A stretch of DNA of 64,000 nt, taken from assembly GCA_964005815.1 (NCBI GenBank), contig CAXFSR010000017.1, positions 173,401 to 237,400 on the forward strand, read 5' to 3'. The notes beneath the pieces were generated by a model. It worked only from the letters and a program-made list of their open reading frames with translations, ran no database searches and was not told the origin of the DNA. Of the stretch, positions 6,600 to 39,774 are shown piece by piece. The stretch's first letter is position 1; each line of letters begins with the position of its first letter. Position numbers and translations under genes: made by a program. Source of the DNA: an uncultured Nitrospinaceae bacterium (GTDB lineage Bacteria; UBA8248).

Positions 6600-7148
6600 C
6601 TATCTTAAAACTTCCCTTACCATATGACTAATTTCAGGAATTATGATTTTATCTAATGCAGTTCTACAAGCATTACCTGAACCAGGCAAAGTCATTATTA
6701 TTGTGTCATTATAGACTCCAGCAGTTGCGCGTGTGAGGATCGCAGGAGTCCCAATTTCCTGAAAACTAATATTACGAAATAATTCTCCAAATCCCGGCAT
6801 TTCTTTATCTAAAATCGAAACTACAACATCATAGGTAGTATCTCTTTTTGTAATACCAGTCCCACCATTTGTGAGTATTACTTGCACAGAAGCATTTTTC
6901 GAAAATTCCTCAATCGAAGACCGGATTTGATCTGGTTCATCTTTTACTATCTTATAAAAATCTGCTTTATGACCATTTTCGACTAATGAATTAATTATTA
7001 ATCTTCCGCTAGTATCATTTTCTTCATTTCTAGTATCACTGACAGTAATGATTGCGCAATTGACTCCCTGTGGACCTTCTGCTTTATGTTCATTGTACGT
7101 TTTTTTATTTACGGCATTTTCTATCTCAGAACGAGATGGATTTTTCAT
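6600..7148 (-). CDS. moaB: molybdenum cofactor biosynthesis protein MoaB/MogA family
   Basis: Contains the GGTG motif (ILTNGGTGITKRDTTYD) and overall MogA/MoaB fold signature. 182 aa. Confidence 0.8.
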   Translation of the reverse strand: MKNPSRSEIENAVNKKTYNEHKAEGPQGVNCAIITVSDTRNEENDTSGRLIINSLVENGHKADFYKIVKDEPDQIRSSIEEFSKNASVQVILTNGGTGITKRDTTYDVVVSILDKEMPGFGELFRNISFQEIGTPAILTRATAGVYNDTIIMTLPGSGNACRTALDKIIIPEISHMVREVLR

Positions 7149-9497: not shown

Positions 9498-11780
9498 ATG
9501 AATGAGTTAAAAAGAACAACATTTACAACTTGTTCCCCCCATTGCGGAAATAATCCCTGTAGTTTTGAGGTTGAAACCAAAGGGGAGGAAATTTCATCAT
9601 TTCGTGCAAATCCAAGAATGGATATTAAGCCCTGTATCAAAGGATTTCAGATACCTGATAGATATAATCACCCGGATAGAATTTTATACCCGATGAAAAG
9701 GATTGGGAAAAAAGGAAGTGGCAAAAACGGATATAATACTTTTGAGAGAATTTCATGGGATGAAGCTATAACATCTATCGCGGATGGCTTAAACGCTGCA
9801 AAGGTTAAGAGTGGAAATGACAGTATTTTATTATACAACTATTCATCTCAACATACTCTTCCCGGCGGGAGAGATGGAGCACCTGCAACTATTATGAGAC
9901 TTTTAAATCTATGGGGTGGAGCAATAGAAGCCTTCAATAGAGGAAGTCTTTGCTGGAGCGCTTTCTTAGGTGGGAGTGATGACGTTCTTGGACAGTGGCA
10001 AATAAAAAATAAAAAAAGCGACAATTGTGATTGGATTATTCTTTGGGGGAACAATCCTGTTGAAACTGGATACAGAGGATTGACACAATCTCTTCAAGAA
10101 GCGAAACGCAAGGGAACAAAATTCATAGTAATAGACCCAATGAAAACTAAAACAGTTCAACGGTTCGCCGATATTCATATTCCCATTGAACCTTCTACCG
10201 ATACTGCGCTAGCACTTGGGGTCCTAAAAATTGTACTCGAAGAACAATATTTAGATAAAGACTTTCTTGCGAAAAGGACAAATGCCCCTTTCCTAGTCAA
10301 AAAATCTACTGGCAAATTTATAACCGATAGAAATGGAGACCCTTTAGTTTGGGACGAAAAGTTAGACGCATTAGTTTCTTACAAAGTTTCTCAAAAACCT
10401 ATGATTGATACAGAAAAAAATATAAATGGAGAAAAATGCACAACTTCATTTAAGCTACTACAAAATGCTTCCCAAAAATGGACCGAAGAAGCTGTAGAAA
10501 AAGAATGTGGGATACCTTCATCTAGTGTACATCAAATTGCTTATGCACTTAAAAATGGAAAAATAATAGTTTATTACGGTGCCTACCAAAGAACGTTAAA
10601 AGGGGAAAATGCGGTCAGGGCTTTACATATTTTAAATCTGATAAGCGGAGCAATTGATGGAGTTATAAATCATGGCTCAACATATACAGACACTCATTTT
10701 GATAGAGCAACAGAATCAGGATTATCAAAGATAATGGCAGAAAATTGGTCAGTACCAAATCCAGTTAAAAGAACTATACCAGTAGGCAAAATTGCAGAAG
10801 CAATCCTAAATCCTGATTCTTACGGGGGAGCCATCCACGCTGGTTTATTTATGTGGGGCAATCCTATAGGACAAGGAGGAAATTCTAATAAAACAAAAAA
10901 AGCATTACTTTCTCTCGATTTTTGCGCTGTGTCAGAAATTTTTCTCACTCCAACCGCCAAATGTGCAGATATAATAATTCCTGCTTCAACTTGGCTAGAA
11001 CGTTCCACTATCACTGAAGGTATGAGTGTGGGCGCAACGTTTTATCACCTCATTGAAGAAAGAAAACCAAAACACCAGATTTTTTATTCTCCTGGCGTAC
11101 TTAAACCATTAGGAGAATCAAAAGATGATTTTGATTTTGTATGTTTACTTGCTGAAAAAATGGGATTCAGAAAAGAATTCCCATGGGCTGATTCTAAACA
11201 ATGGATTGAAAATTTAGTTGATCTTGCTAGAAAAGATTCTCGATTTCCTTGGTTTGAGAAAATTACCACAGAAAAACTAGAAAAGAATGGAGTCCTCACC
11301 TTAGATATTCCTAGAGCAAATTCTTCATGGGACCTTAAAACAAAACACGGCCGCGCCCAGATTTATTTTGAAAATAAGACCCATTCTGTTCCGGAATATT
11401 TTTCGTCAGAAGAATTACTTGAATCTAAACAAATGAAATATCCGCTTAAACTGATAACCCCAAAAACTTATTTCCGTGCTAGTTCAACATTTAACAATGC
11501 AAACAAACTTCTCAGACATGACTTTAACGTTGCTACAATTAATAAAGAAGATGCAAAGAAACGTGACATAAAAAACGGAGATTACATACGCTTATTTAAT
11601 GACTTTGGTGAGACTAAATTTGTTGCTAAGACTACTGACGTTATTCGAAAGGGAGTTGTTCATATCCCTGCTGGCGGAAATGAAGAATTAGGAATGGCAA
11701 ACGAATTAACCGGCGATATGCTTTCTGAATACGAAAACGCTACCTTTAACAGTTACAGAATAGAACTCGAAAGAATTTAA
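9498..11780 (+). CDS. molybdopterin (bis-MGD) oxidoreductase, DmsA-like type II, stand-alone, no Tat signal
   Basis: 760 aa. N-terminal Cys cluster TCSPHCGNNPC (Cx3Cx4C) plus a distal Cys, and the DmsA-like block DRYNHPDRILYPMKRIGKKGSGKN...FERISWDEA. No RRxF twin-arginine leader and no adjacent FeS or membrane subunit. Confidence 0.85.
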   Translation: MNELKRTTFTTCSPHCGNNPCSFEVETKGEEISSFRANPRMDIKPCIKGFQIPDRYNHPDRILYPMKRIGKKGSGKNGYNTFERISWDEAITSIADGLNAAKVKSGNDSILLYNYSSQHTLPGGRDGAPATIMRLLNLWGGAIEAFNRGSLCWSAFLGGSDDVLGQWQIKNKKSDNCDWIILWGNNPVETGYRGLTQSLQEAKRKGTKFIVIDPMKTKTVQRFADIHIPIEPSTDTALALGVLKIVLEEQYLDKDFLAKRTNAPFLVKKSTGKFITDRNGDPLVWDEKLDALVSYKVSQKPMIDTEKNINGEKCTTSFKLLQNASQKWTEEAVEKECGIPSSSVHQIAYALKNGKIIVYYGAYQRTLKGENAVRALHILNLISGAIDGVINHGSTYTDTHFDRATESGLSKIMAENWSVPNPVKRTIPVGKIAEAILNPDSYGGAIHAGLFMWGNPIGQGGNSNKTKKALLSLDFCAVSEIFLTPTAKCADIIIPASTWLERSTITEGMSVGATFYHLIEERKPKHQIFYSPGVLKPLGESKDDFDFVCLLAEKMGFRKEFPWADSKQWIENLVDLARKDSRFPWFEKITTEKLEKNGVLTLDIPRANSSWDLKTKHGRAQIYFENKTHSVPEYFSSEELLESKQMKYPLKLITPKTYFRASSTFNNANKLLRHDFNVATINKEDAKKRDIKNGDYIRLFNDFGETKFVAKTTDVIRKGVVHIPAGGNEELGMANELTGDMLSEYENATFNSYRIELERI

Positions 11781-22987: not shown

Positions 22988-24508
22988 ATGTCTAAATATG
23001 CAATGGCAATTGATTTAAGAGCATGTATTGGCTGTCATGCCTGTACTATAGCCTGTAAATCAGAACACGACATTCCAATAGGTACTTGGCGTTGTTGGGT
23101 GAAAGAGGTAGAGAAAGGCACATTCCCAAATACGAGACGAGAGTTTCTTCCTGTTCTCTGCAATCAATGCGATGACGCCCCTTGTCAAAATATTTGTCCA
23201 ACAAAAGCACTCTTCAGAAGGAATGATGGAATTGTAGATTTGGATCCAGAATGGTGCATAGGATGTAAATCATGTATAGCAGCATGTCCTTATGATCAAA
23301 TATTCATAGACCCAAATACAAGTACTGCCGAAAAATGTAATTTTTGTTCCAACCGACTGGAAGCAGATTTGGAACCTGCGTGTGTTGTTGTTTGTCCAAC
23401 AGAGTGTAGAGTCTTTGGTGATTTAGAAGACCCAGATGCTAAAATCAATAAATTATTAACACATGAACCACATAATGTAAGAAAACCTGAATACAACACT
23501 TCTCCAAATATTTATTATGTAAATGGAAGTCAACAACTTCTAGATCCAACAAAACCAATGCAATCTGGAATTTACAAACAAGGAGAAATGAGCGAAGAAT
23601 TGAAACAATCTGTTCCCGAATTTAAGAATGATCCTCAAGAAAGTCGAACAGTTTATGACACTTTCCATAATATTCCTTGGGACAAGAATATTATTACATA
23701 TTTAATGACTAAGGGTGCTAGTACAGGCTTACTAATTTTAAGTCTCTTTCTTTGGTGGGTTGGTTTCAAGAGTAGTTTATTCTCTTTCTGGATGCCTATA
23801 CTTAGTGGAGTTCTCCTAACTATCACAGGTTATGTACTTATTACGGATTTAAAAAAACCAGAACGTTTTTATTATATTTTACTTCGTTCAAATTGGAATA
23901 GTTGGATGGCATGGGGAACTTGGTTCATTACGTTAAAAGGAATATTTATTTTACTATGGTTACTAGGAGCAATGGCTGGAAATGATGGATTTTTGGACTT
24001 CATTCTTTGGCCTACTATCTTACTTTCTTTTCTTTCTTCTATTTATACTGGATTCTTCTTCGCCCAAGCTAGCGCTAGAGACCTCTGGAAAGGAAGTGAA
24101 AATACGATAGATATCGGAGTTTTATCGATTCTTAAAGGAGCATCAATTTTAGCTTTTTTCGTAATAATTTTTCCAGTCGCGGACAAAACTAACATACTGA
24201 ACACACTTGGAAACGTAATAACAGTATGTACCCTTCTTCATTTTTCAATTTTAATGTTCTCAATACTTTTACATAGATTCGGCTCTGTTGCACATGAGAG
24301 ATCCATCGAGTTAATACTTAAAGGACCTTTCAAAAAGGAATTTTGGAATGGGGCAATTATTGCCGGGTGTGCGGTTCCTATGTTTATTTTCTGGTGGATT
24401 GGATATAACTATTTTACTTTCTTAGTTGCTAGTACGCTTATAGTACTAGGTTCCTACTACTGGGATAAAATATGGGTACAAGCTGGGCAGAAAGTACCAT
24501 TGTCTTAA
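22988..24508 (+). CDS. fused four-cluster [4Fe-4S] ferredoxin (PsrB/NrfC-like) + 8-TM NrfD/PsrC-like quinone-interacting membrane subunit
   Basis: N-terminal 4 Cys motifs (CIGCHACTIAC, CNQCDDAPCQNICP, CIGCKSCIAACP, CNFCS...CVVVCP), then about 8 predicted TM helices in residues about 235-500. No signal or Tat motif. Confidence 0.8.
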   Translation: MSKYAMAIDLRACIGCHACTIACKSEHDIPIGTWRCWVKEVEKGTFPNTRREFLPVLCNQCDDAPCQNICPTKALFRRNDGIVDLDPEWCIGCKSCIAACPYDQIFIDPNTSTAEKCNFCSNRLEADLEPACVVVCPTECRVFGDLEDPDAKINKLLTHEPHNVRKPEYNTSPNIYYVNGSQQLLDPTKPMQSGIYKQGEMSEELKQSVPEFKNDPQESRTVYDTFHNIPWDKNIITYLMTKGASTGLLILSLFLWWVGFKSSLFSFWMPILSGVLLTITGYVLITDLKKPERFYYILLRSNWNSWMAWGTWFITLKGIFILLWLLGAMAGNDGFLDFILWPTILLSFLSSIYTGFFFAQASARDLWKGSENTIDIGVLSILKGASILAFFVIIFPVADKTNILNTLGNVITVCTLLHFSILMFSILLHRFGSVAHERSIELILKGPFKKEFWNGAIIAGCAVPMFIFWWIGYNYFTFLVASTLIVLGSYYWDKIWVQAGQKVPLS

Positions 24509-24524
24509 TTTTCAAGGAGAAGAA

Positions 24525-27398
24525 ATGGTTTCAAAACATTTACAATCTGGAGTTGGGGCACATAATATTTCTTCGTTGGGATATCCTGAACTTTTAGAAA
24601 CTTCGAAAACAACCTCAGATTCAGATAAAACACATACTGTAAAAAAGAATGGGAAATTAAGATCCTACCCACCACCTGAAGAATGGGACAACTGGACTGA
24701 GTTTGAAAGTGGAACTTGGCCCGAAAAAACACAAAGAAATTATTCTCTTATTCCTACTCTTTGCTTCAACTGTGAAGCAGGTTGTGGTCTTCTGGCTTAT
24801 GTTGATAAAGACGATATGAAAATCAGGAAAATAGAGGGAAACCCTCTTCATCCTGGTTCTAGAGGAAGAAACTGTGCAAAAGGATGGGTAACACTGAATC
24901 AAGTAAATGACCCAGATAGAATCCTTTATCCACTCAAGAGAGTCGGCAAAAGAGGAGAAGGAGAATGGGAAAGAGTAAGTTGGGACGAAGTACTAGATGA
25001 TCTTTCAGCAAGAATCAGAAAATCTATTGAAGAAGAAAGACGTAACGAAATTATATATCATGTGGGAAGACCTGGTGAAGATGGTTTTATGTTTAGAACT
25101 CTCGCAAGTTGGGGTGTCGATGGGCATAATAGTCATACAAATGTTTGTAGTTCCTCTGCAAGAATTGGCCAGTACCTTTGGAATGGTTCAGATCGTCCAT
25201 CACCAGATTTTTCCAACGCAGAAGCAATTCTTTTAATAAGCAGTCATTTAGATACAGGCCACTACTTTAACCCTTCAGCTCAGCGCATTATTGAAGCTCA
25301 ATTAAACGGTGCTAAAATCATTGTAATAGACCCGAGACTTTCAAATACTGCGGCTAAAGCAGACTACTGGCTTCCTGCGTATAGCGGAACAGAACCTGCA
25401 ATCTTACTTGCTATTGTTCGCTACTTGTTAGAAACCGGACAATTTGACGAAAAATTTGTTGAAGAATGGTTTAACTGGGCCGAATATTTGAGTTCTGTTC
25501 ATCCTCAAGATGAAATTACTTTTGACAATTTCATTGTTAGGCTAAAAGAAGAATATGCTGAATTCACTTTTGAATATGCATCTGAGGAAACAGGTGTTTC
25601 AATAGAACAAATAGCAGAAGTTGCTCAGGTGATTGCTAGAGCAGGTAGTCGACTATGTGTTCACGTATGGAGAGCAGCAGCTACAGGCAATTTGAATGGA
25701 TGGCAAGTTGCAAGATGCCTACATTTTATTCCATCTTTGACTGGCGCAATAGGTACTGTCGGAGGAACACATTTAGCAAGTTGGCATAAATTCGTTCCTT
25801 CTCATCCAAATCCTGCACCCGGCCCCAAAGACTGGAACGAATTACTTTACCCTACAGAATATCCACTAGCTCATTTTGAAATGAGTTTCTTAATGCCACA
25901 CCTGATGAAAGACAAAGGACATAAAATAGACACATATTTTACCCGTGTTTATAACCCTGTATGGACGAATCCAGACGGTTTTATGTGGGTAGATATGCTA
26001 AGAGATGAAAATAAAATCGGTTGTCACGTCGCACTTACTCCCACTTGGAGTGAGACTGCGTGGTTTGCTGATTACATCTTACCGATGGGAGTTGCTACAG
26101 AAAGACATGACAATCAGAGTCAAGAAACTCATCCAGCGAAATGGTTTGGATTCAGGCAACCTGTTCTCCGTGTCGCTAGAGAAAAACTAGGTGAAACTGT
26201 TGAAACGACTAGAGAAACAAACCCGGGTGAAGTGTGGGAAGAAAATGAATTTTTAATAGAACTTTCTTGGAGAATTGACCCTGATGGTTCATTAGGAATC
26301 AGAAAATATTTCGAAAGTCCATATAGAAATGGAGAGAAAATTACAGTTAACGAGTATTATCAATGGATGTTCGAAAATGGAGTACCTGGACTTCCAGAAG
26401 CGTCCGAAAAAGAGGGCCTTTCTCCATTAGAATATATGAGAAAATATGGAACTTTCACCGTGGAAGATAATGTCTATGAAGTACACATGAAAGAACTTCC
26501 CGAGGATGACCTTAACAGTGCAGATATTACTGAACTAGATGGAACTATTAATGATAATGGAAAAACTATTGGGAATATGAGTAAAGGAAAAGCTCGAATT
26601 GGCTTCAATACTCCATCAAAAAAATTAGAATTTTACAGCGCGACTATGACTGATTGGAACTGGCCAGAACATGCAATTCCTTCCTACAAAAAAACACATG
26701 TTTACTGGAGAGACATGGATAAGAGTGAAAATGAATTTGATTTACTACCTAATTATAGACTACCAACTTTGATACATACTAGATCTGCAGTGAAATGGTT
26801 ATACGAAATTACTCACAATAATCCTCTCTGGATACATACCGAAGATGCAAATCGTATGGGCATCAAAACAGACGACTTAGTCAAGGTAGAAACTGAAATA
26901 GGTTATTTCGTAACACGTTGCTGGGTAACAGAAGGTTTGAAGCCAGGAATAGTTGCAATGGCTCACCACCTAGGACGTTGGAGATTAAATGAAAATATCG
27001 GGGCACCTAAAATTGCTTCTGCTTTAGTTGAAATAGAAGAACAGGACAGTGAATTTACTATGAATCAAATTCACGGGGTTCAACCATTTAAAAGTGATGA
27101 CCCAGATACCGAAAGAATATGGTGGAAAGAAATAGGAGTAAATCAAAACTTAACTTTTCCTGTAAATCCTGATCCTATTAGTGGTATGCACTGTTGGCAT
27201 CAAAAAGTAAAATTAACCAAAGCGACTTCTTCAGAAAGTTATGGAGATATTAAAGTAGATACAGAAAAAAGTTTTGCACACTACAAAAAATGGCTAGAAA
27301 TGGCTAGACCTGCTCCAGGACCAGATGGTCTAAGAAGACCTCTCTGGTTTTTAAGACCAAATAAACCACAAGCAGATGCTTATTTGCTAGAGGAGTAA
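24525..27398 (+). CDS. molybdopterin oxidoreductase catalytic subunit, Psr/Phs/Ttr/Soe-like, no Tat signal
   Basis: 957 aa. CFNCEAGCG (Cx2Cx3C) FS0 motif, ILYPLKRVGKRGEGEWERVSWDEV block, MGD-binding regions. N-terminus MVSKHLQSGVGAHN lacks a twin-arginine. AAGGAGA RBS 8 nt upstream. Confidence 0.85.
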   Translation: MVSKHLQSGVGAHNISSLGYPELLETSKTTSDSDKTHTVKKNGKLRSYPPPEEWDNWTEFESGTWPEKTQRNYSLIPTLCFNCEAGCGLLAYVDKDDMKIRKIEGNPLHPGSRGRNCAKGWVTLNQVNDPDRILYPLKRVGKRGEGEWERVSWDEVLDDLSARIRKSIEEERRNEIIYHVGRPGEDGFMFRTLASWGVDGHNSHTNVCSSSARIGQYLWNGSDRPSPDFSNAEAILLISSHLDTGHYFNPSAQRIIEAQLNGAKIIVIDPRLSNTAAKADYWLPAYSGTEPAILLAIVRYLLETGQFDEKFVEEWFNWAEYLSSVHPQDEITFDNFIVRLKEEYAEFTFEYASEETGVSIEQIAEVAQVIARAGSRLCVHVWRAAATGNLNGWQVARCLHFIPSLTGAIGTVGGTHLASWHKFVPSHPNPAPGPKDWNELLYPTEYPLAHFEMSFLMPHLMKDKGHKIDTYFTRVYNPVWTNPDGFMWVDMLRDENKIGCHVALTPTWSETAWFADYILPMGVATERHDNQSQETHPAKWFGFRQPVLRVAREKLGETVETTRETNPGEVWEENEFLIELSWRIDPDGSLGIRKYFESPYRNGEKITVNEYYQWMFENGVPGLPEASEKEGLSPLEYMRKYGTFTVEDNVYEVHMKELPEDDLNSADITELDGTINDNGKTIGNMSKGKARIGFNTPSKKLEFYSATMTDWNWPEHAIPSYKKTHVYWRDMDKSENEFDLLPNYRLPTLIHTRSAVKWLYEITHNNPLWIHTEDANRMGIKTDDLVKVETEIGYFVTRCWVTEGLKPGIVAMAHHLGRWRLNENIGAPKIASALVEIEEQDSEFTMNQIHGVQPFKSDDPDTERIWWKEIGVNQNLTFPVNPDPISGMHCWHQKVKLTKATSSESYGDIKVDTEKSFAHYKKWLEMARPAPGPDGLRRPLWFLRPNKPQADAYLLEE

Positions 27399-27477
27399 GA
27401 AAATTTGGCCTAGACGTTCTAAAAACCTAGAGGAACTAAATCAGCAGTCTAAATTAAGAGAAGAATTATATAGAGTC

Positions 27478-28044
27478 ATGTCTATAACTTTTCTAGATCC
27501 TCCGGAAAAAAAGTTATTACACTTCTTGAATGAAAATTATCCATTCCTTTTTGAAGAAAATGGAAATCCTTTAGGTGACTTAGTTAAAGATCTAAGAGTA
27601 GATTTCACGAATCTATTTGTCTTGTCCTCTCCACCATATGAATCTGTTTTATTGGATGAAAGTGGTTTTTTGAATTCAAAAGTGACTGACAACGTGAATG
27701 ATTTTTTTAGACATTCTGGATTTAACCCTAGTTCAAAAAATATAGGACAGAAATTTCATAGTATACTATCAATGGACCATATTAGCGTAGAATTAGAATT
27801 TATGTCTCACCTCGCAAAAAATCAACATAAAGACCTCATCAATAAAAATGAACAAGAATATTACAAATCATTAGATTTATCGTCAAAATTTCTAGATAAT
27901 CACTTATTAAGATGGGTCCCTATTTATTTAACAGCTATAGAAAGGGATTCTAAAACTTTTTTTTACAAAGAATTGTGCAAGTGGGCTCAAAACTACATTT
28001 TAGATGACAGAAAATATATCGAAGAAATAACTAAAAGAAATTAA
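27478..28044 (+). CDS. TorD/DmsD-family molybdoenzyme maturation chaperone
   Basis: 188 aa. DHISVELEFMSHLA matches the TorD-family DHxxxELEF core signature. Positioned immediately after the catalytic subunit. Confidence 0.7.
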   Translation: MSITFLDPPEKKLLHFLNENYPFLFEENGNPLGDLVKDLRVDFTNLFVLSSPPYESVLLDESGFLNSKVTDNVNDFFRHSGFNPSSKNIGQKFHSILSMDHISVELEFMSHLAKNQHKDLINKNEQEYYKSLDLSSKFLDNHLLRWVPIYLTAIERDSKTFFYKELCKWAQNYILDDRKYIEEITKRN

Positions 28045-30828: not shown

Positions 30829-31956
30829 ATGTTCTCCTCTAAAATTGAAGAAATTCAACCGTTCTTAGTTATGGATATTTTAAGAAAAGCGAACGATCTT
30901 GAGAGAGACGGAAAAAAAATTGTACACTTAGAACTAGGAGAACCCGATTTTCCCACGCCTAAAGTAATAGTCGAATCCGCAAAAAAAGCTCTTAAAGATG
31001 GAAATACTCATTACACAAACTCTTTAGGGATTCTAGAATTAAGAAAATCAATTTCAGATTATTACAACGAAACATATAATTTAAATATTTCATCTAATAG
31101 AGTGATTGTCACAAACGGCACTAGTCCAGCGATGTTGATTCTGTTCAAATTACTACTTGAAATTGATGACGAAGTAATAATTTCTGACCCCCACTACGCA
31201 TGCTATCCTTCCTTTATAACTTGTACGGGTGCTAAACCTGTATTAGTACCATTCAAAAACTTTTCTTCAGAAGTCACAAACTATATCACTGACAAAACAA
31301 AAATCATTTTAATCAACTCTCCTTCCAATCCCACTGGCACGAGACTTAGAAAGGAGGAAATAGAAAAATTATCAGCCTTACATCCAGTAATCGTTTCAGA
31401 TGAGATTTATCATGGAATTAGCACGGGAATTAGAGACCATTCTGCATTAGAATTCTCAGATAATTCAGTTGTGATAAACGGCTTTTCAAAATTTTTTGCT
31501 ATGACTGGATGGAGATTAGGATACATGATTGTACCAGAATGTTTCGTGAGAAAATTAGAGATACTACAACAGAATTTCTTTATTTCAGCTAATCCATTTG
31601 TCCAAATAGCAGGAATTACCGCACTCAAAGAAGCAATACCGGAAGCGAAACTCATGAATCAAATCTACACCAAAAGGAGAAAGTTAGCTTTAGAAGGTTT
31701 AGAATCAATTAATCTGGAAACAAGACCGCATCCTGATGGTGCTTTTTATGCACTATTTAACGTAAGTAATTTTGAAAAAGATAGTATGAAACTTGCAAGC
31801 GAAATACTGACCTCTGCTGGAGTAGCGCTAGCCCCAGGAAAGGATTTTGGACCAAGAGGGGAAGGACACCTCAGGCTCTCGTATTGTAATTCAGAAGAAA
31901 ATATAGAAAAAGGAATCAATCTAATAGGGAAATTTTTAAAAGAAAAATATCTCTAA
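30829..31956 (+). CDS. class I/II PLP-dependent aminotransferase
   Basis: 375 aa. NSPSNPTG, SDEIY, SKFFAMTGWRLGY (PLP-Lys) motifs. Confidence 0.8.
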   Translation: MFSSKIEEIQPFLVMDILRKANDLERDGKKIVHLELGEPDFPTPKVIVESAKKALKDGNTHYTNSLGILELRKSISDYYNETYNLNISSNRVIVTNGTSPAMLILFKLLLEIDDEVIISDPHYACYPSFITCTGAKPVLVPFKNFSSEVTNYITDKTKIILINSPSNPTGTRLRKEEIEKLSALHPVIVSDEIYHGISTGIRDHSALEFSDNSVVINGFSKFFAMTGWRLGYMIVPECFVRKLEILQQNFFISANPFVQIAGITALKEAIPEAKLMNQIYTKRRKLALEGLESINLETRPHPDGAFYALFNVSNFEKDSMKLASEILTSAGVALAPGKDFGPRGEGHLRLSYCNSEENIEKGINLIGKFLKEKYL

Positions 31957-32234
31957 TCTTCTGTATTTAACTCTATAGAATTTTCATCTAAAAGTACTTC
32001 TTCAGAATCATTTCTAGTGTCAGTCCACTCAAGTTTTCCTTCAATAATTTCTCGAAAAACTACTTCTTCCTTAGTATCAGTTTTCTTAGTTTCTACTAGA
32101 GGTTCTGCTCCATTCCTTAATTGATTAACTCTCTTTGCGAGTAAAATAGACATCAAGAATCTATTCTGTACTTGGTCGGTTGCAAGTTCGAAAAGCTCAT
32201 CATAACTAGCTTGCTCTAACATAAATGCCTCCAA
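31953..32234 (-). CDS. rpoZ: DNA-directed RNA polymerase subunit omega
   Basis: ATDQVQNRFLMSILLAKRVNQLRNGAEPLVETKKTDTKEEVVFREIIEGKL aligns along its length with E. coli RpoZ [51 protein letters not shown]. Confidence 0.85.
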   Translation of the reverse strand: MEAFMLEQASYDELFELATDQVQNRFLMSILLAKRVNQLRNGAEPLVETKKTDTKEEVVFREIIEGKLEWTDTRNDSEEVLLDENSIELNTED

Positions 32235-32263
32235 AACACTAAATATAAAATTTTAAAATTTAC

Positions 32264-32788
32264 TTATCCGATACCAACATGCTGCACATAGGCAACTTGC
32301 ATATTTGATCGTACTTGCTTAAGTATATCAGCTTCTTCTTCAGTCAAATTTCCTTTCATTTTCTCTTCTAACATACCAAAGAGATCAACAAATAATTTAG
32401 CAGCTCTAGGATCAGCCGACCCTACCTTTTCACCTGTTTGAGGATGAAGTCCCATTGCACCCAAAGCATTCGCTTGAAGAATAGCGATCATCATTTCGAA
32501 ATGTTTTTCATCTTCCTCTTCTTCCTTTTCTTCCTTAGATTCTTCCGATTGAATATCTGAGGATTCATCCGGAGACTGCTTAACTTCTTCTGGAATTTCT
32601 TGATTTAACTCGGATACATTTTCTGTTTGCCCTGAGGGTTCCGAATTATCAGAAGAAATAATAGGATTACTATCTGATTTTTCTTCAACTTCTTCAGCAT
32701 CATAACCAGTTACAGAATAGCGTCTATCTGAAACCTTGAAACTTTGAGGTTCTTCATTCTCTGAGATGTTTTTTTCTTCTTCAGACAT
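32264..32788 (-). CDS. hypothetical acidic protein (174 aa; Glu/Ser-rich N-terminal half, conserved-looking C-terminal about 80 aa)
   Basis: ORF between dnaJ and rpoZ on the minus strand. The N-terminal half is low-complexity and acidic (EEEKEEEEDEK). C-terminal MIAILQANALGAMGLHPQTGEKVGSADPRAAKLFVDLFGMLEEK... not recognised. Confidence 0.5.
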   Translation of the reverse strand: MSEEEKNISENEEPQSFKVSDRRYSVTGYDAEEVEEKSDSNPIISSDNSEPSGQTENVSELNQEIPEEVKQSPDESSDIQSEESKEEKEEEEDEKHFEMMIAILQANALGAMGLHPQTGEKVGSADPRAAKLFVDLFGMLEEKMKGNLTEEEADILKQVRSNMQVAYVQHVGIG

Positions 32789-32830
32789 TTTTCCCTCTTT
32801 TGTAAAATAAAAAATACAAGAAGAACATAT

Positions 32831-33982
32831 TTATCTATAGAAAGGCAACCTTGGAAACTCAAAAAACTTTTTTATCTTATCAAATATGTGAATGCAGTTC
32901 AGAAAAGATTTAGTCGTCGGAGTTCCTTGCTTTTCAAATTTGGCTAATTCTTGGAATAGCTTCTTTTCTTTAGAACTTAACTTCCTTGGAGTAAGTATAG
33001 AAAAGACGACTATATGATCACCCTTAGAATTGCTTGTCAAAGATGGAAATCCTTGTTTTTTAATAACCGCGCTTTCTCCTGACTGAACTCCCTGTGGTAC
33101 TGTAATTTCACTTTCCCCATACAAAGTTTGTACAAGAATCTTTCCACCAAGCGCAGCCTGAGAAAAAGTCACATCTTCTCTGCTAAAAACATTATTTCCT
33201 TCTCTTTCTAATCTATCATGTTTTAATAGATTGACTATTACATGCAAATCTCCAGAAGGCCCTCCATTAATTCCACCTTCTCCCTTTTCACGTAATCTCA
33301 AACGTGATTCATGGTCAGCTCCTGGTGGAATTTTAACTTTCACAGAACATTCTTCTTGACGTTTTCCAGAACCCCTACATTCATCACAATGCTCTATAAT
33401 CTTATTTCCAGAACCGTCACATTCGGAACACTGAGAGCTAAAAGTTACGAACCCCTGCCTATATGCTACTTGACCACTTCCACCACAGGTTTCACAATTT
33501 AAAATAGATTCTGAATTTTTAGCTCCTGTACCACCGCAATATACACACTCTATTTCTCTTTCAAATTCGACATCATGTTCTGAACCCATAGCAGCTTCTT
33601 CGAATGTAAGATCTAACTGATATGCAAGATCTCTTCCTTTTACTCTTCCATCTCCTCTAGAACTTCGTCCAAATGCTCCGCCAAAAATGTCAGAAAAAAC
33701 ATCTCCAAAAGATGAGAAAATATCATCTACACTTGAGAAACCAGAAGAAAATCCACCAGAAAGTCCATCATGACCATATTGATCATAAATACCTCTTTTT
33801 TGAGTATCACTTAAAACTTGATAGGCTTCGGAAGCTTCTTTAAAAAGTTCTTCAGCTTTTGAATCTCCTGGATTTCTGTCTGGATGATACTGCATTGCTG
33901 TTGAGCGGTAAGCTTTTTTTATTTCCGACTCTGTTGCATTCCTGCTAATATTTAAAATTTCGTAATAATCCCTTTTTGACAC
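32831..33982 (-). CDS. dnaJ: chaperone DnaJ (type I, with CxxCxGxG zinc-finger repeats)
   Basis: J-domain with HPD (YHPDRNPG), G/F-rich linker, four CxxCxGxG repeats (CVYCGGTG, CETCGGSG, CSECDGSG, CDECRGSG), C-terminal domains. Confidence 0.9.
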   Translation of the reverse strand: MSKRDYYEILNISRNATESEIKKAYRSTAMQYHPDRNPGDSKAEELFKEASEAYQVLSDTQKRGIYDQYGHDGLSGGFSSGFSSVDDIFSSFGDVFSDIFGGAFGRSSRGDGRVKGRDLAYQLDLTFEEAAMGSEHDVEFEREIECVYCGGTGAKNSESILNCETCGGSGQVAYRQGFVTFSSQCSECDGSGNKIIEHCDECRGSGKRQEECSVKVKIPPGADHESRLRLREKGEGGINGGPSGDLHVIVNLLKHDRLEREGNNVFSREDVTFSQAALGGKILVQTLYGESEITVPQGVQSGESAVIKKQGFPSLTSNSKGDHIVVFSILTPRKLSSKEKKLFQELAKFEKQGTPTTKSFLNCIHIFDKIKKFFEFPRLPFYR

Positions 33983-34012
33983 TTTATATGTTCTCCCGAG
34001 TCAACCATACGT

Positions 34013-34759
34013 TTAAGTAGGTTGCTCATCTTTTTTTGATTCGATATATCTTCCGACTGCAACACGACTAGGACGGAGAATCTCATCGTTTAAAAAATAC
34101 CCTACTGAAAGTTCTTCTAAAATTTTTCCATCTAATTCTTTATCTGTTACATCGTCAGAACGTATCGCTTCATGTCTAACAGGATCGAAAATTTCCCCAA
34201 CAGATTGAATTGGTTTTACCCCTTGTGAGGATAATTCTTGAAAGAATCTACTCTCCACCATTCGAAATCCTTCAATAAGGGATTGTATACCTTCAACTTT
34301 TGTGTTGGGTTCATTTTTCCAACCATCCTGTACTGCATGATTAGCCCTAGATAAATCATCTCCAACACTCAACAAACTAGTAAACAGTTCTTTTTTTACT
34401 TGTTGAATTCTTCTTTCTAAATCCTTTTCTTGACGTTTTCTAAACTCCTTAGACTCTTTATTAACTCTTGCAATATGTTCTTGAAGTTTTTCTTCTGCTA
34501 TCAAAACTTTTTTCTCTAAAAGTTCAACATAACTTGGCACCAAAGATGGTGACTCATCTTTATTTTTTTCTTCTGTTGAATCTTCTTCTGTAGGATCTTC
34601 TTCTGATTTAAAACGTCTACGATCATTTACACGGGCTTTTTCCTCTTCGTTCTCAATTTCTTTTGAATTCTCATCCTCTTTGGTATCAGAAGAAAAAATA
34701 TTTTCTCCTAATGAGGATTTCTCATCATCGTTAGAATCAACCTTCTCTACCTGCATCAA
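34013..34759 (-). CDS. grpE: nucleotide exchange factor GrpE
   Basis: 248 aa. Acidic N-terminus, long coiled-coil (…RVNKESKEFRKRQEKDLERRIQQVKKELF…) and a C-terminal beta-domain typical of GrpE. Confidence 0.85.
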   Translation of the reverse strand: MMQVEKVDSNDDEKSSLGENIFSSDTKEDENSKEIENEEEKARVNDRRRFKSEEDPTEEDSTEEKNKDESPSLVPSYVELLEKKVLIAEEKLQEHIARVNKESKEFRKRQEKDLERRIQQVKKELFTSLLSVGDDLSRANHAVQDGWKNEPNTKVEGIQSLIEGFRMVESRFFQELSSQGVKPIQSVGEIFDPVRHEAIRSDDVTDKELDGKILEELSVGYFLNDEILRPSRVAVGRYIESKKDEQPT

Positions 34760-34847
34760 AAAACCTCCAAAAGTTAAAAACTTTACAACCTAAAAAACCT
34801 TTACGAATTTCACTGACTTAAAACAAAAGAACAATACTATGTTCTAA

Positions 34848-35252
34848 TTATTTCTCTCTTTTGAGTTTCATAAGCTTCGCTCCTATAGATGGTATAAGAG
34901 CATTCATGTCAGGAGTTGCATTTTCAATTTTTTGACGAAATTCCTCAAATGCATCACTACTTAAAACCTCTTCCATCTGCTCAAGTCTTTCTATTGCCAA
35001 ATGTAGTTTTTGACGTAATTCTATAATTACTTCAACTCCAGCCAAATTAATTCCCATATCTCTAGTAAGTGTTAGAATAATTTCTAACTTTTCTAAATCT
35101 TTCTCTTCATAAAGACGAGTTCTACCCTCACTTCGCATAGGTTCAATTAATCCCTCTCTTTCATACATTCTCAAGGTCTGGGGATGTATTTCGAACATTT
35201 CAGCAACAGTACTTATAGTATATTTTACTTGTTTCCTGCTCCTACGTACCAA
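34848..35252 (-). CDS. hspR: MerR-family heat-shock repressor HspR-like
   Basis: N-terminal MerR HTH (YTISTVAEMFEIHPQTLRMYEREGLIEP...R.Y) followed by a coiled-coil. Embedded between J-protein and grpE genes. Confidence 0.8.
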   Translation of the reverse strand: MVRRSRKQVKYTISTVAEMFEIHPQTLRMYEREGLIEPMRSEGRTRLYEEKDLEKLEIILTLTRDMGINLAGVEVIIELRQKLHLAIERLEQMEEVLSSDAFEEFRQKIENATPDMNALIPSIGAKLMKLKREK

Positions 35253-35265
35253 GACCTTATCCTCA

Positions 35266-36213
35266 TTAAGTTCGTGAAATATTCATGCCTTCTCTAGGAT
35301 CAATTGGATTCAATCTTTCAAATTCTCGAATTAAATCTTTACTTTTTTCGTCAATTCTTTCAGGAAGTTTTAAACTTACAGCTACAAAAAGATCTCCCTT
35401 ACCAGTTCCCTTCATTTGAGGTGCGCCTTTTCCATTTAGTCGCAACCTTTGTCCATTTTGAGTCCCAGGAGGAATTGTAACTTTCGTTACTCCTTCGAAA
35501 GTTTCTAATTCTACACGAGTACCTAAAGAAAGCTCACCTAGAGTCAGGGGAAGATCAATATATAAATTATCTCCTTTTCTTTCAATGTAAGGATGAGTAC
35601 TTACCTTTGTTAAAATATACAGGTCACCATTTTTCCCTCCTGTCTGAGAAGTTTCCCCTTTACCTGTTAACCTAATTCGAGAACCATTTGAAACACCAGC
35701 AGGTATTTTCACTTTAATTCTTTCTGTTGCCCTTCTGAGGACACCATTGTTAATAATATTTTTAGGAACTGTCACAACAGTTTCCAGACCACGTAAGGCA
35801 TCATCAAAACCAATCTCTATAGAATAATTTACATCTTCTCCCTTTGTGTTTACTGGAGAACCCCAGTTTGAGGAACGATAGGAAGTTCTTCCACGTTGTC
35901 CTCCAAAAAAACTACCAAAGATATCTCCTATACCTATGTCTTTTAAGATATCTTCCATATTTATTCCGCCTTCCCATGGATTACCTCCTGAAAATGCAGC
36001 GTGGCCCATCGTGTCATATTTACGTCTTTTTTCAACATCAGAGAGGACTGCGTAAGCTTCACTTATTTCCTTGAAACGCTCTTCTGCAGATTTGTTCCCG
36101 GGATTTACATCAGGATGATATTTTCTGGCAAGTTTTTTAAATGCTCTCTTCAATTGTTCAGAAGAAACATCTCTATTTACTCCTAACAGCTCATAATAAT
36201 CCCGTTTCGACAT
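35266..36213 (-). CDS. cbpA: J-domain co-chaperone without zinc finger (CbpA/DnaJ type II-like)
   Basis: J-domain with HPD (YHPDVNPG), G/F region, C-terminal substrate-binding domains. No CxxCxGxG repeats. 315 aa. Confidence 0.8.
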   Translation of the reverse strand: MSKRDYYELLGVNRDVSSEQLKRAFKKLARKYHPDVNPGNKSAEERFKEISEAYAVLSDVEKRRKYDTMGHAAFSGGNPWEGGINMEDILKDIGIGDIFGSFFGGQRGRTSYRSSNWGSPVNTKGEDVNYSIEIGFDDALRGLETVVTVPKNIINNGVLRRATERIKVKIPAGVSNGSRIRLTGKGETSQTGGKNGDLYILTKVSTHPYIERKGDNLYIDLPLTLGELSLGTRVELETFEGVTKVTIPPGTQNGQRLRLNGKGAPQMKGTGKGDLFVAVSLKLPERIDEKSKDLIREFERLNPIDPREGMNISRT

Positions 36214-36248
36214 ACGAATTCCCTGAAAGATAAAAAATTAGAATAAAA

Positions 36249-38174
36249 TTATTTGTCCTTTTTAACTTCTTCAAATTCTGCATCTACTACATCACCATCA
36301 TCACCACCTGTTTCATTTCCATTTTCTGTATTAGCAGATGGATTTTCAGAATCTGTATTTGCCTGTTTGCTAGCTTCTTCGTACATCGCCTGAGACAATT
36401 TATGTGATACAGTTTCTAAATTCGTTTTAGCAGAATCAATTTCTTCAATAGTTGCATCTTGATTTTCAAGAACTTTACGGACCTCTGCAATAGCATCTTC
36501 TATAGCTTTTTTATCTTCCTCTGAAACTTTATCATTGTTTTCACCCAACATCTTTTCTGTACTGTATGCGAGAGATTCTGCATTGTTTCTAGATTCCACG
36601 AGTTCTCTACGTTTTTTATCCTCACCAGCATTTTCTTCAGCATCTTTCACCATATTATTTATCTCTTCTTCAGAAATACCACTTGAACTCGTAATCGTAA
36701 TAGCTTGTTCCTTACCTGTACCTAAATCTTTTGCAGAAACATTAACAATCCCATTAGCATCAATGTCAAAGGTGACTTCTATTTGTGGCACTCCACGCGG
36801 AGCAGACGGAATATCTACAAGATGAAATTTTCCAAGACTACGATTATCAGCAGCCATTTCTCTCTCTCCTTGTAGAACATGCACCTCCACAGAAGTTTGA
36901 TTATCCGCAGCAGTAGAAAATGTTTCACTTTTTTTAACAGGAATTGTGGTGTTACGCTCAATAAGTTTCGTACAAACATTTCCTAAAGTCTCTATCCCTA
37001 GTGATAATGGAGTAACATCCAACAATAAAACATCCTTAACATCCCCTGCTAGAACACCACCTTGTACTGCCGCACCGACTGCTACAACTTCATCAGGATT
37101 CACACCTTTATGTGGTTCTTTAGTAAAGAATTTCTTTACTGTTTCCTGAACAAGAGGCATACGCGTAGAACCTCCAACTAAAACCACCTCATCTATATCT
37201 CCAGGTTGAAGATTTGCATCATTTAAAGATTGACGACAAGGAACAAGTGTTCTTTCTACTAATTCACCAGCAAGTTGTTCTAACTTAGAACGAGAAATTT
37301 TGATATTTAAATGTTTGGGTCCTGAGGAATCAGCTGTAATAAATGGAAGGTTAATATCAGTTTCCATTGAACTAGAAAGTTCAATCTTTGCTTTCTCAGA
37401 CTCTTCACGTAACCTCTGTAAAGCCATTGGATCAGTAGACAAATCAATACCCTGATCTTTTTTAAACTCCTCAACTAGCCAATCTATAATTTGTTGGTCA
37501 ATATTGTCACCACCTAGATGGGTATCTCCATTTGTCGCCTTAACTTCAACAACGTTATCTCCAACTTCGAGGATAGAAACATCGAAAGTTCCACCACCAA
37601 AATCATAAACAGCTATAGTTTGATCCTGCTTTTTGTCCAGACCATAGGCCAAAGCTGCCGCAGTAGGTTCATTAATTATACGCAGAACATTTAATCCAGC
37701 GATCTTTCCAGCATCTGTAGTAGCTTGTCTTTGACTATCATTAAAATATGCAGGAACTGTCACTACAGCATCACTAACTTCCTCTCCAAGATAGTCACTA
37801 GCTGCTTGTTTTAATTTTTGTAGAACACTAGAAGAAATTTCAGGTGGTGCGTAAACTTTACCATTTATCTTAAGCCTAGCATCACCATTCTCAGCTTTTA
37901 TAACTTCATAAGGCACCATCTTAACTTCTTCTGGAACCTCATCGAATCTTCTACCCATAAATCTCTTTACTGAATAAATAGTATTTGTAGGGTTGGTTAC
38001 TGCTTGCCTTTTAGCAACAACTCCAACAAGTTTCTCACCTTCTGGAGTAAAACCAACTATACTAGGTGTAGTACGATTCCCTTCCTGATTTGGTATGACC
38101 GTAGGTTCACCGGCTTCCATAATAGAAACTACAGAGTTTGTGGTTCCTAAATCAATACCAATAACTTTTCCCAT
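36249..38174 (-). CDS. dnaK: molecular chaperone DnaK (Hsp70)
   Basis: [28 protein letters not shown] Hsp70 signatures. 641 aa. AGGAGG RBS 7 nt upstream. Confidence 0.95.
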
Positions 38175-38246
38175 TTTTGCCTCCTAAAACAAAAAAATAA
38201 AATTAAAATCAACAATAAAAAAATAAAAAAACAAAATTGGATGTTA

Positions 38247-38301
38247 AATTTATAATATGAGTCTTTTATTGTCAATTTATATAAGTATAATTAACTCATA
38301 T
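38247..38301 (-). promoter_or_regulatory. candidate dnaK-operon sigma70-type promoter overlapped by an inverted repeat ATATGAGT/ACTCATAT (candidate HspR operator)
   Basis: Minus-strand TTGACA at 38270-38275. TATAAA-like -10 about 15-17 nt downstream (38247-38254). 8-bp inverted repeat arms at 38255-38262 and 38294-38301 bracket the -35. TGAGT/ACTCA are the half-sites of the HAIR consensus CTTGAGT-N7-ACTCAAG, but the spacing here is 31 nt. Confidence 0.4.
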
Positions 38302-38362
38302 ATAAATTGAATTAATTTTTTTATAAAATATCTGATTTGGAAATTAATTATTGATTAATTAA

Positions 38363-38392
38363 TTGATAGATTTGACAAAATTAAAATATAAA
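38363..38392 (+). promoter_or_regulatory. candidate promoter for the divergent iscA/erpA-like gene
   Basis: TTGATA (38363-38368), 18-nt spacer, TATAAA (38387-38392). A TTGACA is also present at 38372-38377. Very AT-rich context, so weak evidence. Confidence 0.25.
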
Positions 38393-38458
38393 GATAGCCT
38401 AACAAAAGAAATTGTTTATAAAGATATTAGTTAAAAATATTTAAAAAAGGGAACGTGA

Positions 38459-38827
38459 ATGGTAACTTTATTTGATGAAACCAAGTCACCTACAAAAAGC
38501 TCCGGGATTACCGTAACAGAAAATGCATCTAAAAAAGTGAGTGAACTTCTTAAAGCAGAAGGAAAAGAAAATCACGGACTTCGTTTATCAGTGACCGCAG
38601 GGGGCTGTTCAGGCTATAACTACGGATTATTTTTTGACGAAAAAGCAAACCCTGATGACAAAGTTTACGAATCAAACGGCATCAATATATTCATAGACAC
38701 TCAGAGCGATTCTCTTCTATCTGGCACAGAAATAGATTTCGTTGACAGCCTAGAAGGCTCAGGATTTAAAATCAACAATCCTAATGCAACGGGCACTTGC
38801 GGCTGCGGAAAATCTTTCACAGCCTAA
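38459..38827 (+). CDS. iron-sulfur cluster insertion protein, HesB/IscA/ErpA family
   Basis: 122 aa. Conserved Cys triad in GGCSGYNY ... GTCGCGKSF (C-x(n)-C-G-C). Confidence 0.8.
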   Translation: MVTLFDETKSPTKSSGITVTENASKKVSELLKAEGKENHGLRLSVTAGGCSGYNYGLFFDEKANPDDKVYESNGINIFIDTQSDSLLSGTEIDFVDSLEGSGFKINNPNATGTCGCGKSFTA

Positions 38828-38865
38828 ACAAAAAATCAACTAGCTAATTACCATCTAATTGAAGA

Positions 38866-38899
38866 AAACGGATTTTAATAAAATACAATCCGTTTTTTT
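38866..38899 (+). terminator. rho-independent terminator after the iscA-like gene
   Basis: Perfect 9-bp stem AAACGGATT / AATCCGTTT with a 12-nt loop followed by a T7 run (38893-38899). Confidence 0.6.
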
Positions 38900-38982
38900 G
38901 CCAATCTATATAAAATCGTTAAAAGAATGGTAAAATAATAAAATACACCCTTTTATTTAGCCTACTTAAAGAGGAATTTTTA

Positions 38983-39774
38983 ATGCAACGTTTTAAAAAT
39001 AAAGTTTGCATCATAAGTGGTGGAGCTAGTGGAATTGGCGCTAAAACCGCTGAAATGTTTGCAGAAGAAGGTGGAAAGGTTTTAATAGGAGATGTTGATG
39101 AAAAAAATGGAAAGAATCAAACAGAAAAAATTACCGAAAAATACGGTAATGGAACTGCTATTTTTTTCTATCTAGATGTTTCCAATCCTAACGATTGCGA
39201 AAAAGCTGTAAAGAAAGCTGTTCATGAATTTGGTTGCGTAAACTACCTACTAAATAGCGCAATTAAAATGGCTCCAGGAATGCTAAAAGAACTTTCTCTC
39301 GAAAATTGGAATACAATGATCACAATTGGATTAACTGGGACATTTCTCATGACTCAAGCAACTGGAAGGTGGATGATTGACAACAACATCCCTGGGTCTA
39401 TAGTCACAATGTCGTCTATTGGTGGACAACAACCATACGGAATGTCAGGTGCTTACTCAACTGTAAAAGCCGCTGTCATCATGCTTGCAGAACACTTTGG
39501 GATAGAATGGGCCAGCCACAAAATCAGGGTTAATGCCATATGCCCTGGTCACACAGAAACACCTTTAACATCTTACTTAAAAGACTCGGACATAAAAAAA
39601 CAGAGAAGTGAAATCACACCACTGCTGAGGGTCGCACAGCCAATAGATATTGCCAACGGTATTTTATTCTTATTCTCAGAAGAAGCAGATTACATAACTG
39701 CTACAACCCTAGAAATTGACGGCGGACTTAGCAAAACTGTAATGAATCATCTACCTGGTCGAAAGTGGAAATAA
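38983..39774 (+). CDS. SDR-family oxidoreductase
   Basis: KVCIISGGASGIGAKTA (TGxxxGIG) NAD-binding motif, S..Y...K catalytic triad region (SGAYSTVKAA). 263 aa. Confidence 0.75.
   Translation: MQRFKNKVCIISGGASGIGAKTAEMFAEEGGKVLIGDVDEKNGKNQTEKITEKYGNGTAIFFYLDVSNPNDCEKAVKKAVHEFGCVNYLLNSAIKMAPGMLKELSLENWNTMITIGLTGTFLMTQATGRWMIDNNIPGSIVTMSSIGGQQPYGMSGAYSTVKAAVIMLAEHFGIEWASHKIRVNAICPGHTETPLTSYLKDSDIKKQRSEITPLLRVAQPIDIANGILFLFSEEADYITATTLEIDGGLSKTVMNHLPGRKWK

Follow-up and report, generated by a model that had tools for sequence, protein, structure and literature searches.

An hspR-containing chaperone gene run with a HAIR-like promoter element in low-GC marine Nitrospinota

The dnaK-J-hspR-grpE-dnaJ genes and their relatives

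There are five heat-shock genes arranged head to tail on the minus strand of the DNA stretch analysed here, hereafter called the window, which comprises 64,000 nucleotides of contig CAXFSR010000017.1 from a low-GC marine member of the Nitrospinota (window G+C content of about 35 %). In a six-frame list of open reading frames (ORFs), they occupy positions 32831-38174 in the order dnaK, a J-protein gene, the MerR-type regulator gene hspR, grpE and dnaJ, with intergenic gaps of 35, 13, 88 and 30 nucleotides, respectively. Protein families were assigned with Pfam and NCBIfam models. The organization of this run and its predicted control by HspR are the subject of this report.

The first gene, dnaK (36249-38174), begins with an ATG codon preceded by AGGAGG at 38185-38180, and its product of 641 amino acids scores 1025.9 bits against the DnaK equivalog model, which has a cutoff of 648. 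The second gene (35266-36213), also with an ATG start, encodes a class B (zinc-finger-less), CbpA-like J-protein of 315 amino acids. This protein carries the Pfam J domain (DnaJ) and DnaJ_C, and there is neither a Pfam match to DnaJ_CXXCXGXG nor a CXXCXGXG motif in its sequence. It fails the CbpA equivalog PRK10266 (203.4 bits versus a cutoff of 403), and PRK14299, a model for the Thermus/Deinococcus-type short DnaJ, fits equally well (205 bits). From these scores, the plain term class B J-protein suits it best. The gene hspR (34848-35252; 134 amino acids) has a TTG start, and its GAGGA ribosome-binding site overlaps the stop codon of the J-protein gene. The grpE ORF (34013-34759) measures 248 amino acids from a TTG codon, and translation probably begins at the ATG at 34756, which yields 247 amino acids; GrpE scores 104.5 bits in Pfam. 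Finally, dnaJ (32831-33982) has a GTG start and encodes a class A protein with zinc finger of 383 amino acids, which contains all three DnaJ domains and lies above the TIGR02349 cutoff (394 versus 377).

The regulator has an N-terminal MerR-type winged helix-turn-helix at residues 11-77 (Pfam MerR_1, 8.1e-17; MerR, 2.7e-12). Its top two NCBIfam models are both HspR models (103.4 and 101.5 bits), and the next-best MerR subfamily, ZntR, reaches only 44.8 bits. HspR models also rank first for all 15 of the aligned orthologues, and the gene is found beside dnaK and J-protein genes in both the window and its relatives. These observations support the assignment of the regulator as HspR-like rather than as a member of another MerR subfamily. 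A search of solved structures returned only generic MerR/GlnR/CueR matches. The protein is 96-99 % identical to proteins of marine metagenomes and of metagenome-assembled genomes (MAGs) named Nitrospinota. Its N-terminus, M(V/A)RR...YTIS, is kept in orthologues, and outside the low-GC clade the start codon is ATG, or GTG in one case. Several public assemblies (loci L090-L095) call hspR from an internal ATG, giving a protein of 116 amino acids in which part of the helix-turn-helix is lost. We consider these calls truncated because the TTG start with its GAGGA site and the N-terminus of the 134 amino acid form are conserved.

The gene order of the window is also found in its close relatives (L089-L095 and L222-L224). 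There is a longer cluster in more distant Nitrospinota, in 'Tectomicrobia' and in other MAGs of 4 Mb (L001-L003, L081-L088 and L096-L099), which reads clpB-dnaK-J-hspR-M48 peptidase-grpE-dnaJ-DUF1844-rpoZ and whose HspR is 57-66 % identical to that of the window. These Nitrospinota loci were gathered by exact-protein look-ups, and the matches listed in a scan of genome contigs with the HspR alignment were mostly from Acidobacteriota. The longer clusters have Rrf2, erpA and a radical-SAM gene upstream and divergent; erpA and the radical-SAM gene flank the upstream side in the window as well, and the downstream aminotransferase, HU and queA genes are likewise common to both. Missing from the locus in the window clade, when compared with L081-L088 and L096-L099, are clpB (upstream of dnaK), the M48/HtpX-like peptidase gene (between hspR and grpE) and the divergent Rrf2 gene. 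Thus, the shared order and flanks indicate that the window holds a reduced copy of a phylum-wide cluster, and as a consequence of the missing genes the promoter abuts dnaK. The GC-rich palindromic repeats in the clpB-dnaK spacer of L001 (about 6740-7040 of that locus), such as GTCGCATATATGCGAC and GTCAGACATATATGTCTGAC, may be REP-like (repetitive extragenic palindromic) elements.

In at least 77 Acidobacteriota loci, dnaK-J-hspR is found by itself, and neither grpE nor a second dnaJ lies within 10 kb; this is the standard arrangement in that phylum. The Acidobacteriota J-protein is longer than that of the window. In many of these loci, the C-terminal part of this longer protein finds a better match in the class A DnaJ of the window, over a stretch that spans the zinc-finger region.

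Two more genes follow dnaJ on the same strand. A DUF1844 gene (32264-32788) begins 42 nucleotides after dnaJ, and rpoZ (31953-32234), which encodes the RNA polymerase omega subunit, lies 29-41 nucleotides after DUF1844; the 3' end of rpoZ overlaps a convergent aminotransferase gene. Both genes follow dnaJ in every Nitrospinota locus examined, and a protein with 100 % identity to the DUF1844 product is encoded on 21 contigs, which reach 299 kb in length. DUF1844 may be a further member of the transcription unit. We know of essentially no literature on DUF1844. A role as a general chaperone partner was considered and rejected: outside Nitrospinota, in Elusimicrobia and another lineage, the gene adjoins either a GHMP-kinase gene or one for a class I aminoacyl-tRNA synthetase (Pfam tRNA-synt_1c), and no chaperone genes. 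Since its neighbours differ in this way, the link between DUF1844 and chaperones is lineage-specific.

A preliminary description of this locus, made from the sequence alone, gave the same five-gene coordinates and a gap range that agrees with the measured values, and its calls of Hsp70, a zinc-finger-less J-protein, GrpE, type-I DnaJ and an HspR-type rather than another MerR-type regulator are confirmed by the family models. Its label 'CbpA-like' holds for the domain content of the J-protein and not for the equivalog, whose cutoff is missed by a wide margin. Its five-gene extent is correct as far as it goes, and the run continues past dnaJ into DUF1844 and rpoZ. The view that the arrangement is unusual is overstated, given the occurrence of the same order, with clpB and the M48 peptidase gene added, across Nitrospinota/'Tectomicrobia', and the prevalence of dnaK-J-hspR in Acidobacteriota.

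A conserved promoter element upstream of dnaK

There are three sigma-70-like matches at 10 of 12 positions in the region 31500-39000, and the sole intergenic one is located upstream of dnaK. On the minus strand, it consists of a -35 hexamer TTGACA (38270-38275) and, 17 nucleotides after it, a -10 hexamer TAAATT (38247-38252), which is in the same register as the TATATT/TATAAT of relatives. Transcription of dnaK is predicted to start at about 38240.

The -35 hexamer also forms the left arm of an inverted repeat that we call O2, ATTGACA-ATAAAAG-ACTCATA (38256-38276, minus strand), whose right arm ACTCA lies at 38262-38258. This is the sole exact TTGACA-N7-ACTCA in the window. A second repeat, O1, with the sequence TATGAGT-TAATTAT-ACTTATA (38280-38300, minus strand), is located upstream and was found as TGAGT-N7-ACTTA; the centres of O1 and O2 are 24 bp apart. 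Both resemble the HspR-associated inverted repeat (HAIR), which has the consensus CTTGAGT-N7-ACTCAAG (PMC6102357). In five aligned low-GC Nitrospinota the O1 arms TATATGAG and CTTATATAA are invariant, as are the arms of O2, and the spacers of both vary. Invariant arms with variable spacers are the footprint that would be expected of protein-binding sites. A promoter comparison indicates that O1 is not present in higher-GC Nitrospinota.

The operator became visible only through promoter comparison across loci. When the regions upstream of dnaK and clpB are compared, a stereotyped promoter emerges, aaaAcTTGACA-N7-ACTCA-(g/a)-N4-TATATT. Across the two phyla, the consensus reads cTTGACA-N7-ACTCA(a/g)g, which has the N7 spacing of HAIR and agrees with it at about 12 of 14 positions. 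As judged from these alignments, the predicted operator is HAIR-like and not a canonical HAIR, and its left arm doubles as the -35 hexamer. Among 98 listed hspR loci there are 70, from Nitrospinota and Acidobacteriota, with enough upstream sequence, and 67 of these carry the motif (with at most one mismatch) within 300 nucleotides 5' of the first operon gene. The median distance from motif to first gene is 101 nucleotides over all 67 loci. Elsewhere on that strand of those loci there are eight matches (1.5 Mb in all 98 loci).

Because HspR itself had selected this first set of loci, a reverse test was run, wherein metagenome contigs were scanned for the extended form TTGACA-N7-ACTCA-NN-TATTATATT. 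Among the 120 matches listed, the downstream gene is dnaK in 91, hsp20 in 13 (five of them confirmed by Pfam), clpB in one, a J-protein gene in one and an unrelated gene in four; the remaining 10 have too little sequence. Downstream sequence of at least 3.8 kb is available for 24 of the dnaK-first matches; the order is dnaK-J-hspR in 23 of them, and 22 of the 24 contigs have dnaK-J-hspR without grpE within 10 kb. These counts establish that the promoter type is specific to heat-shock genes and is tied to hspR. The hsp20 genes start 30-65 nucleotides 3' of the extended motif on their 13 contigs (L103, L112, L117, L127, L136, L142, L145, L152, L156, L174, L177, L203 and L208), and are likely members of the same regulon.

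Just 3' of the -10 hexamer there is a conserved TCCAAT (38236-38241, minus strand), which may be a further half-site. The corresponding position in Acidobacteriota, 21 nucleotides after ACTCA, is occupied by ATTCAA or GCTCAA. More fully, the Acidobacteriota loci L004-L080 have a conserved (c/g)ATTCAA(c) or GGCTCAAG about 21 nucleotides 3' of ACTCA and about 10 nucleotides after the -10 hexamer. This element looks like another right arm of HAIR, placed two helical turns from the first, which suggests tandem or cooperative binding by HspR.

The 5' leader of dnaK (38175-38246, minus strand) contains a great deal of U, and its sequence is highly conserved among members of the clade. We considered an RNA thermometer in this leader, wherein a conserved UCCAAUUUUGUUU near the predicted transcript start pairs with the region of the Shine-Dalgarno sequence and AUG codon, and rejected it for lack of support. 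The consensus fold has 15 pairs and a free energy of -5.2 kcal/mol. There are no compensatory changes, four of the 15 pairs are broken in L089, and the leader of the window is no more stable than its shuffled versions (z = +0.85). A second conserved block is found in the dnaK-erpA intergenic region (38371-38400), where the plus strand carries TTGACA (38372-38377) and, after 17 nucleotides, TAGCCT (38395-38400). This block probably serves as promoter for the erpA/iscA-type gene (38459-38827), which is divergent from dnaK.

Transcription and autoregulation of the run

The intergenic gaps offer little sign of an interruption in transcription. There is no terminator-like site inside the run, no gap folds better than its shuffles, and intrinsic terminators or attenuators considered for the gaps were rejected, with none scoring above shuffled sequences. 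Promoter-like matches overall number 20, compared with 23.7 expected from shuffles. In the longer clusters of relatives, hspR and the M48 peptidase gene overlap by four nucleotides and the M48-grpE spacing is 25-30 nucleotides, values that are typical of an operon. Given these tight junctions and the lack of internal terminators or of a promoter excess, a single transcript from the dnaK promoter is most likely.

We therefore consider it probable, and the best of the models at hand, that the run is a heat-shock operon with one promoter that is autorepressed by HspR through O1 and O2, and that it has been trimmed from the phylum-wide cluster. We prefer this model because the HAIR-like promoter motif is conserved and is tied to heat-shock genes. 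Transcription would start from TTGACA (38275-38270) and TAAATT (38252-38247), run through dnaK, the J-protein gene, hspR, grpE and dnaJ, and possibly continue into DUF1844 and rpoZ. One or more HspR dimers would bind O2 and O1 over or next to the -35 and -10 hexamers and occlude RNA polymerase. Since this HspR would be made from within the operon, the operon would repress itself. Perhaps, under proteotoxic stress, repression is relieved via chaperone feedback. DnaK is a co-repressor for HspR in Streptomyces and M. tuberculosis, and by analogy with Streptomyces and Mycobacterium might play this part here. HspR might also be modulated by the adjacent J-protein, in the manner of CbpA in Helicobacter pylori, which binds HspR and hinders its binding to DNA (PMC6032397). 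This link is worth testing because Campylobacterota, Nitrospinota and Acidobacteriota all keep a class B J-protein gene next to hspR.

The preliminary description had likewise placed the entire DnaK-DnaJ-GrpE machine under HspR. This remains a prediction, made plausible by the conserved HAIR-like operator in the only convincing promoter. Its statement that hrcA and the controlling inverted repeat of chaperone expression (CIRCE) are absent from the window also agrees with our searches. There is no CIRCE (TTAGCACTC-N9-GAGTGCTAA, with up to three mismatches) in the 64 kb, and a scan of 20 window ORFs, among them all those of 290-460 amino acids that had no other annotation, gave no HrcA domain.

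Several observations weigh against autorepression of one long transcript. The 88-nucleotide hspR-grpE gap (34760-34847, minus strand), which occupies the place of the M48 (HtpX-like) peptidase gene of other Nitrospinota, opens with a weak hairpin followed by a T-run (AGAACA-N6-TGTTCT, then TTTTGTTTT), and rpoZ is a housekeeping gene that probably needs HspR-independent expression. A separate internal start may serve grpE-dnaJ and especially rpoZ. If so, there would be two or more units, wherein dnaK-J-hspR is autoregulated by HspR and grpE-dnaJ(-DUF1844-rpoZ) is expressed mainly from an internal promoter, so that GrpE and DnaJ would lie outside strict HspR control. The widest gap does fall exactly at the module boundary, dnaK-J-hspR does stand alone in the Acidobacteriota loci and in nearly all of the metagenome contigs described above, and several promoter-like matches at 9 or 10 of 12 positions are found within coding regions. 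However, the hairpin has only 6 bp, the gap fold yields z = -0.48 relative to shuffles, and the hairpin 3' of hspR is not kept in L089 or L090. Across the clade the spacer measures 52-91 nucleotides and is conserved only at the ribosome-binding site and start. The gap itself contains no promoter match at 9 of 12 positions, and the total of such matches is at or below that of shuffles. Moreover, the hspR/M48 and M48-grpE junctions of relatives leave no room for an intergenic promoter, and the gene order is kept across the phylum. We regard a division into two units as rather unlikely.

Other observations concern the operator and its proposed ligand. Against the HspR equivalog NF047375, the regulator scores 101.5 bits, which is 3.5 bits below the curated cutoff of 105. 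There is no canonical HAIR (with up to three mismatches) near the operon, and O1 and O2 each share only 9 of 14 positions with the HAIR consensus. Within the AT-rich window, motif counts are not above shuffle expectation, and therefore the case for the operator rests on position and conservation. Also, close to the -10 hexamer the window promoter departs from the pattern with which the metagenome contigs were scanned, and therefore the regulon evidence covers the promoter family and not the window copy directly. A sceptic could argue that TTGACA-N7-ACTCA marks a strong promoter of stereotyped form or is bound by another factor, and that HspR acts elsewhere or together with HrcA/CIRCE or sigma-32, given that the left arm simply equals the sigma-70 -35 consensus and that the identity to HAIR is low. 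However, ACTCA at a fixed N7 from the -35 hexamer is no sigma-70 element and is exactly the HAIR right arm with HAIR spacing. The motif is also conserved in two phyla specifically before HspR-encoding operons, it precedes hsp20 and clpB as well, and HspR operators over the -35 and -10 regions have been documented at the H. pylori cbpA promoter (PMC6032397). This makes a non-HspR site very improbable.

Taken further, HspR autoregulation could hold well beyond this locus. Nitrospinota, and for the core module Acidobacteriota, might run cytosolic protein repair from one repressor and one stereotyped HAIR-variant promoter, which together would govern ClpB, DnaK, two J-proteins, GrpE, an HtpX-like protease and separate hsp20 genes, with no part for HrcA/CIRCE or sigma-32. 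The marine clade would have dropped ClpB and the protease from the unit and added a second operator. We offer this generalization tentatively, as an idea that is possible and more doubtful than the model for the window itself.

Elsewhere in the window, the plus strand at 22988-28044 encodes a 4Fe-4S/NrfD fusion (506 amino acids), a molybdopterin oxidoreductase of 957 amino acids and a NarJ-like chaperone (188 amino acids), and there is a second molybdopterin oxidoreductase at 9498-11780. These oxidoreductase genes may bear on the energy metabolism of this member of the Nitrospinota.

Comparison with known HspR systems

The HspR/HAIR circuit has so far been studied in Actinobacteria, Campylobacterota and Deinococcus. 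A literature search for HspR together with Nitrospina or Acidobacteria returned nothing relevant, and the longer clpB-to-rpoZ cluster was not found in the literature searched. The present data extend the circuit, as predicted from conserved loci, to Nitrospinota and Acidobacteriota, which are environmentally important and poorly cultured phyla. The motif cTTGACA-N7-ACTCA within a promoter offers a concrete operator model that could be used to predict heat-shock regulons in MAGs and could aid the reading of marine metatranscriptomes. In addition, the unit of the low-GC marine clade has apparently lost clpB and the HtpX-like protease, a minor case of genome streamlining that touches a stress system.

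Within the two phyla, the window shares orthologues (HspR 62-66 % identical), order, flanks and promoter/operator type with the longer Nitrospinota/'Tectomicrobia' cluster, and differs in that a second HAIR-like site (O1), either gained or retained by its clade, lies upstream. With the Acidobacteriota dnaK-J-hspR loci it shares the three-gene module and the cTTGACA-N7-ACTCA promoter/operator.

The cbpA-hspR(-helicase) operons of Helicobacter pylori and Campylobacter jejuni resemble the window in that a class B J-protein gene is located immediately 5' of hspR. There too, a degenerate HAIR-like repeat in AT-rich DNA serves as an operator over the -35 and -10 regions of the operon's own promoter (PMC6102357, PMC6032397). 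HspR binding at the cbpA promoter of H. pylori nucleates on a HAIR-like repeat in the centre and extends over 70-80 bp (PMC6102357, PMC6032397). In these species, however, grpE and dnaK belong to a separate hrcA-grpE-dnaK operon that is co-repressed by HrcA/CIRCE, whereas in the window dnaK comes first, grpE and dnaJ follow hspR, and neither CIRCE nor hrcA is found.

The closest parallel in regulatory terms is with Streptomyces coelicolor and Mycobacterium tuberculosis, where DnaK, GrpE, DnaJ and HspR are also encoded in one operon; in the window, self-repression of that operon is a prediction. The actinobacterial order is dnaK-grpE-dnaJ-hspR. This operon already sets DnaK, DnaJ and GrpE under HspR, and so the earlier view that these modules are split in studied HspR systems does not hold for all of them. 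The inverted repeat at the promoter has the same TTGA..-N7-..TCAA geometry, and there are several operator copies in both cases, namely three HAIR copies at the S. coelicolor dnaK operon (PMC6102357) and O1 and O2 in the window. In the relatives of the window clpB belongs to the same predicted regulon, and control of clpB by HspR has been reported for Streptomyces albus (PMC6102357). The association of the motif with hsp20 in metagenome contigs also has a counterpart elsewhere. In Deinococcus, hsp20 is an HspR target.

The differences from actinobacteria lie in the details. There hspR is the last gene, whereas in the window it is internal and a second, zinc-finger-less J-protein is encoded between dnaK and hspR. 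The left operator arm is the -35 hexamer TTGACA rather than TTGAGT, the window sites differ from the HAIR consensus as noted above, the phylum is Nitrospinota, and a co-repressor role for DnaK is proposed by analogy only. The distinguishing features are the internal hspR, an additional J-protein that has no zinc finger, a variant operator that incorporates the -35 hexamer, and the phyla involved. In other respects this is an ordinary heat-shock operon that is conserved within its lineage. Gene order and the extra J-protein set it apart from the actinobacterial operon and the regulatory logic does not, and because that logic is the known one, the current understanding of HspR control is not overturned.

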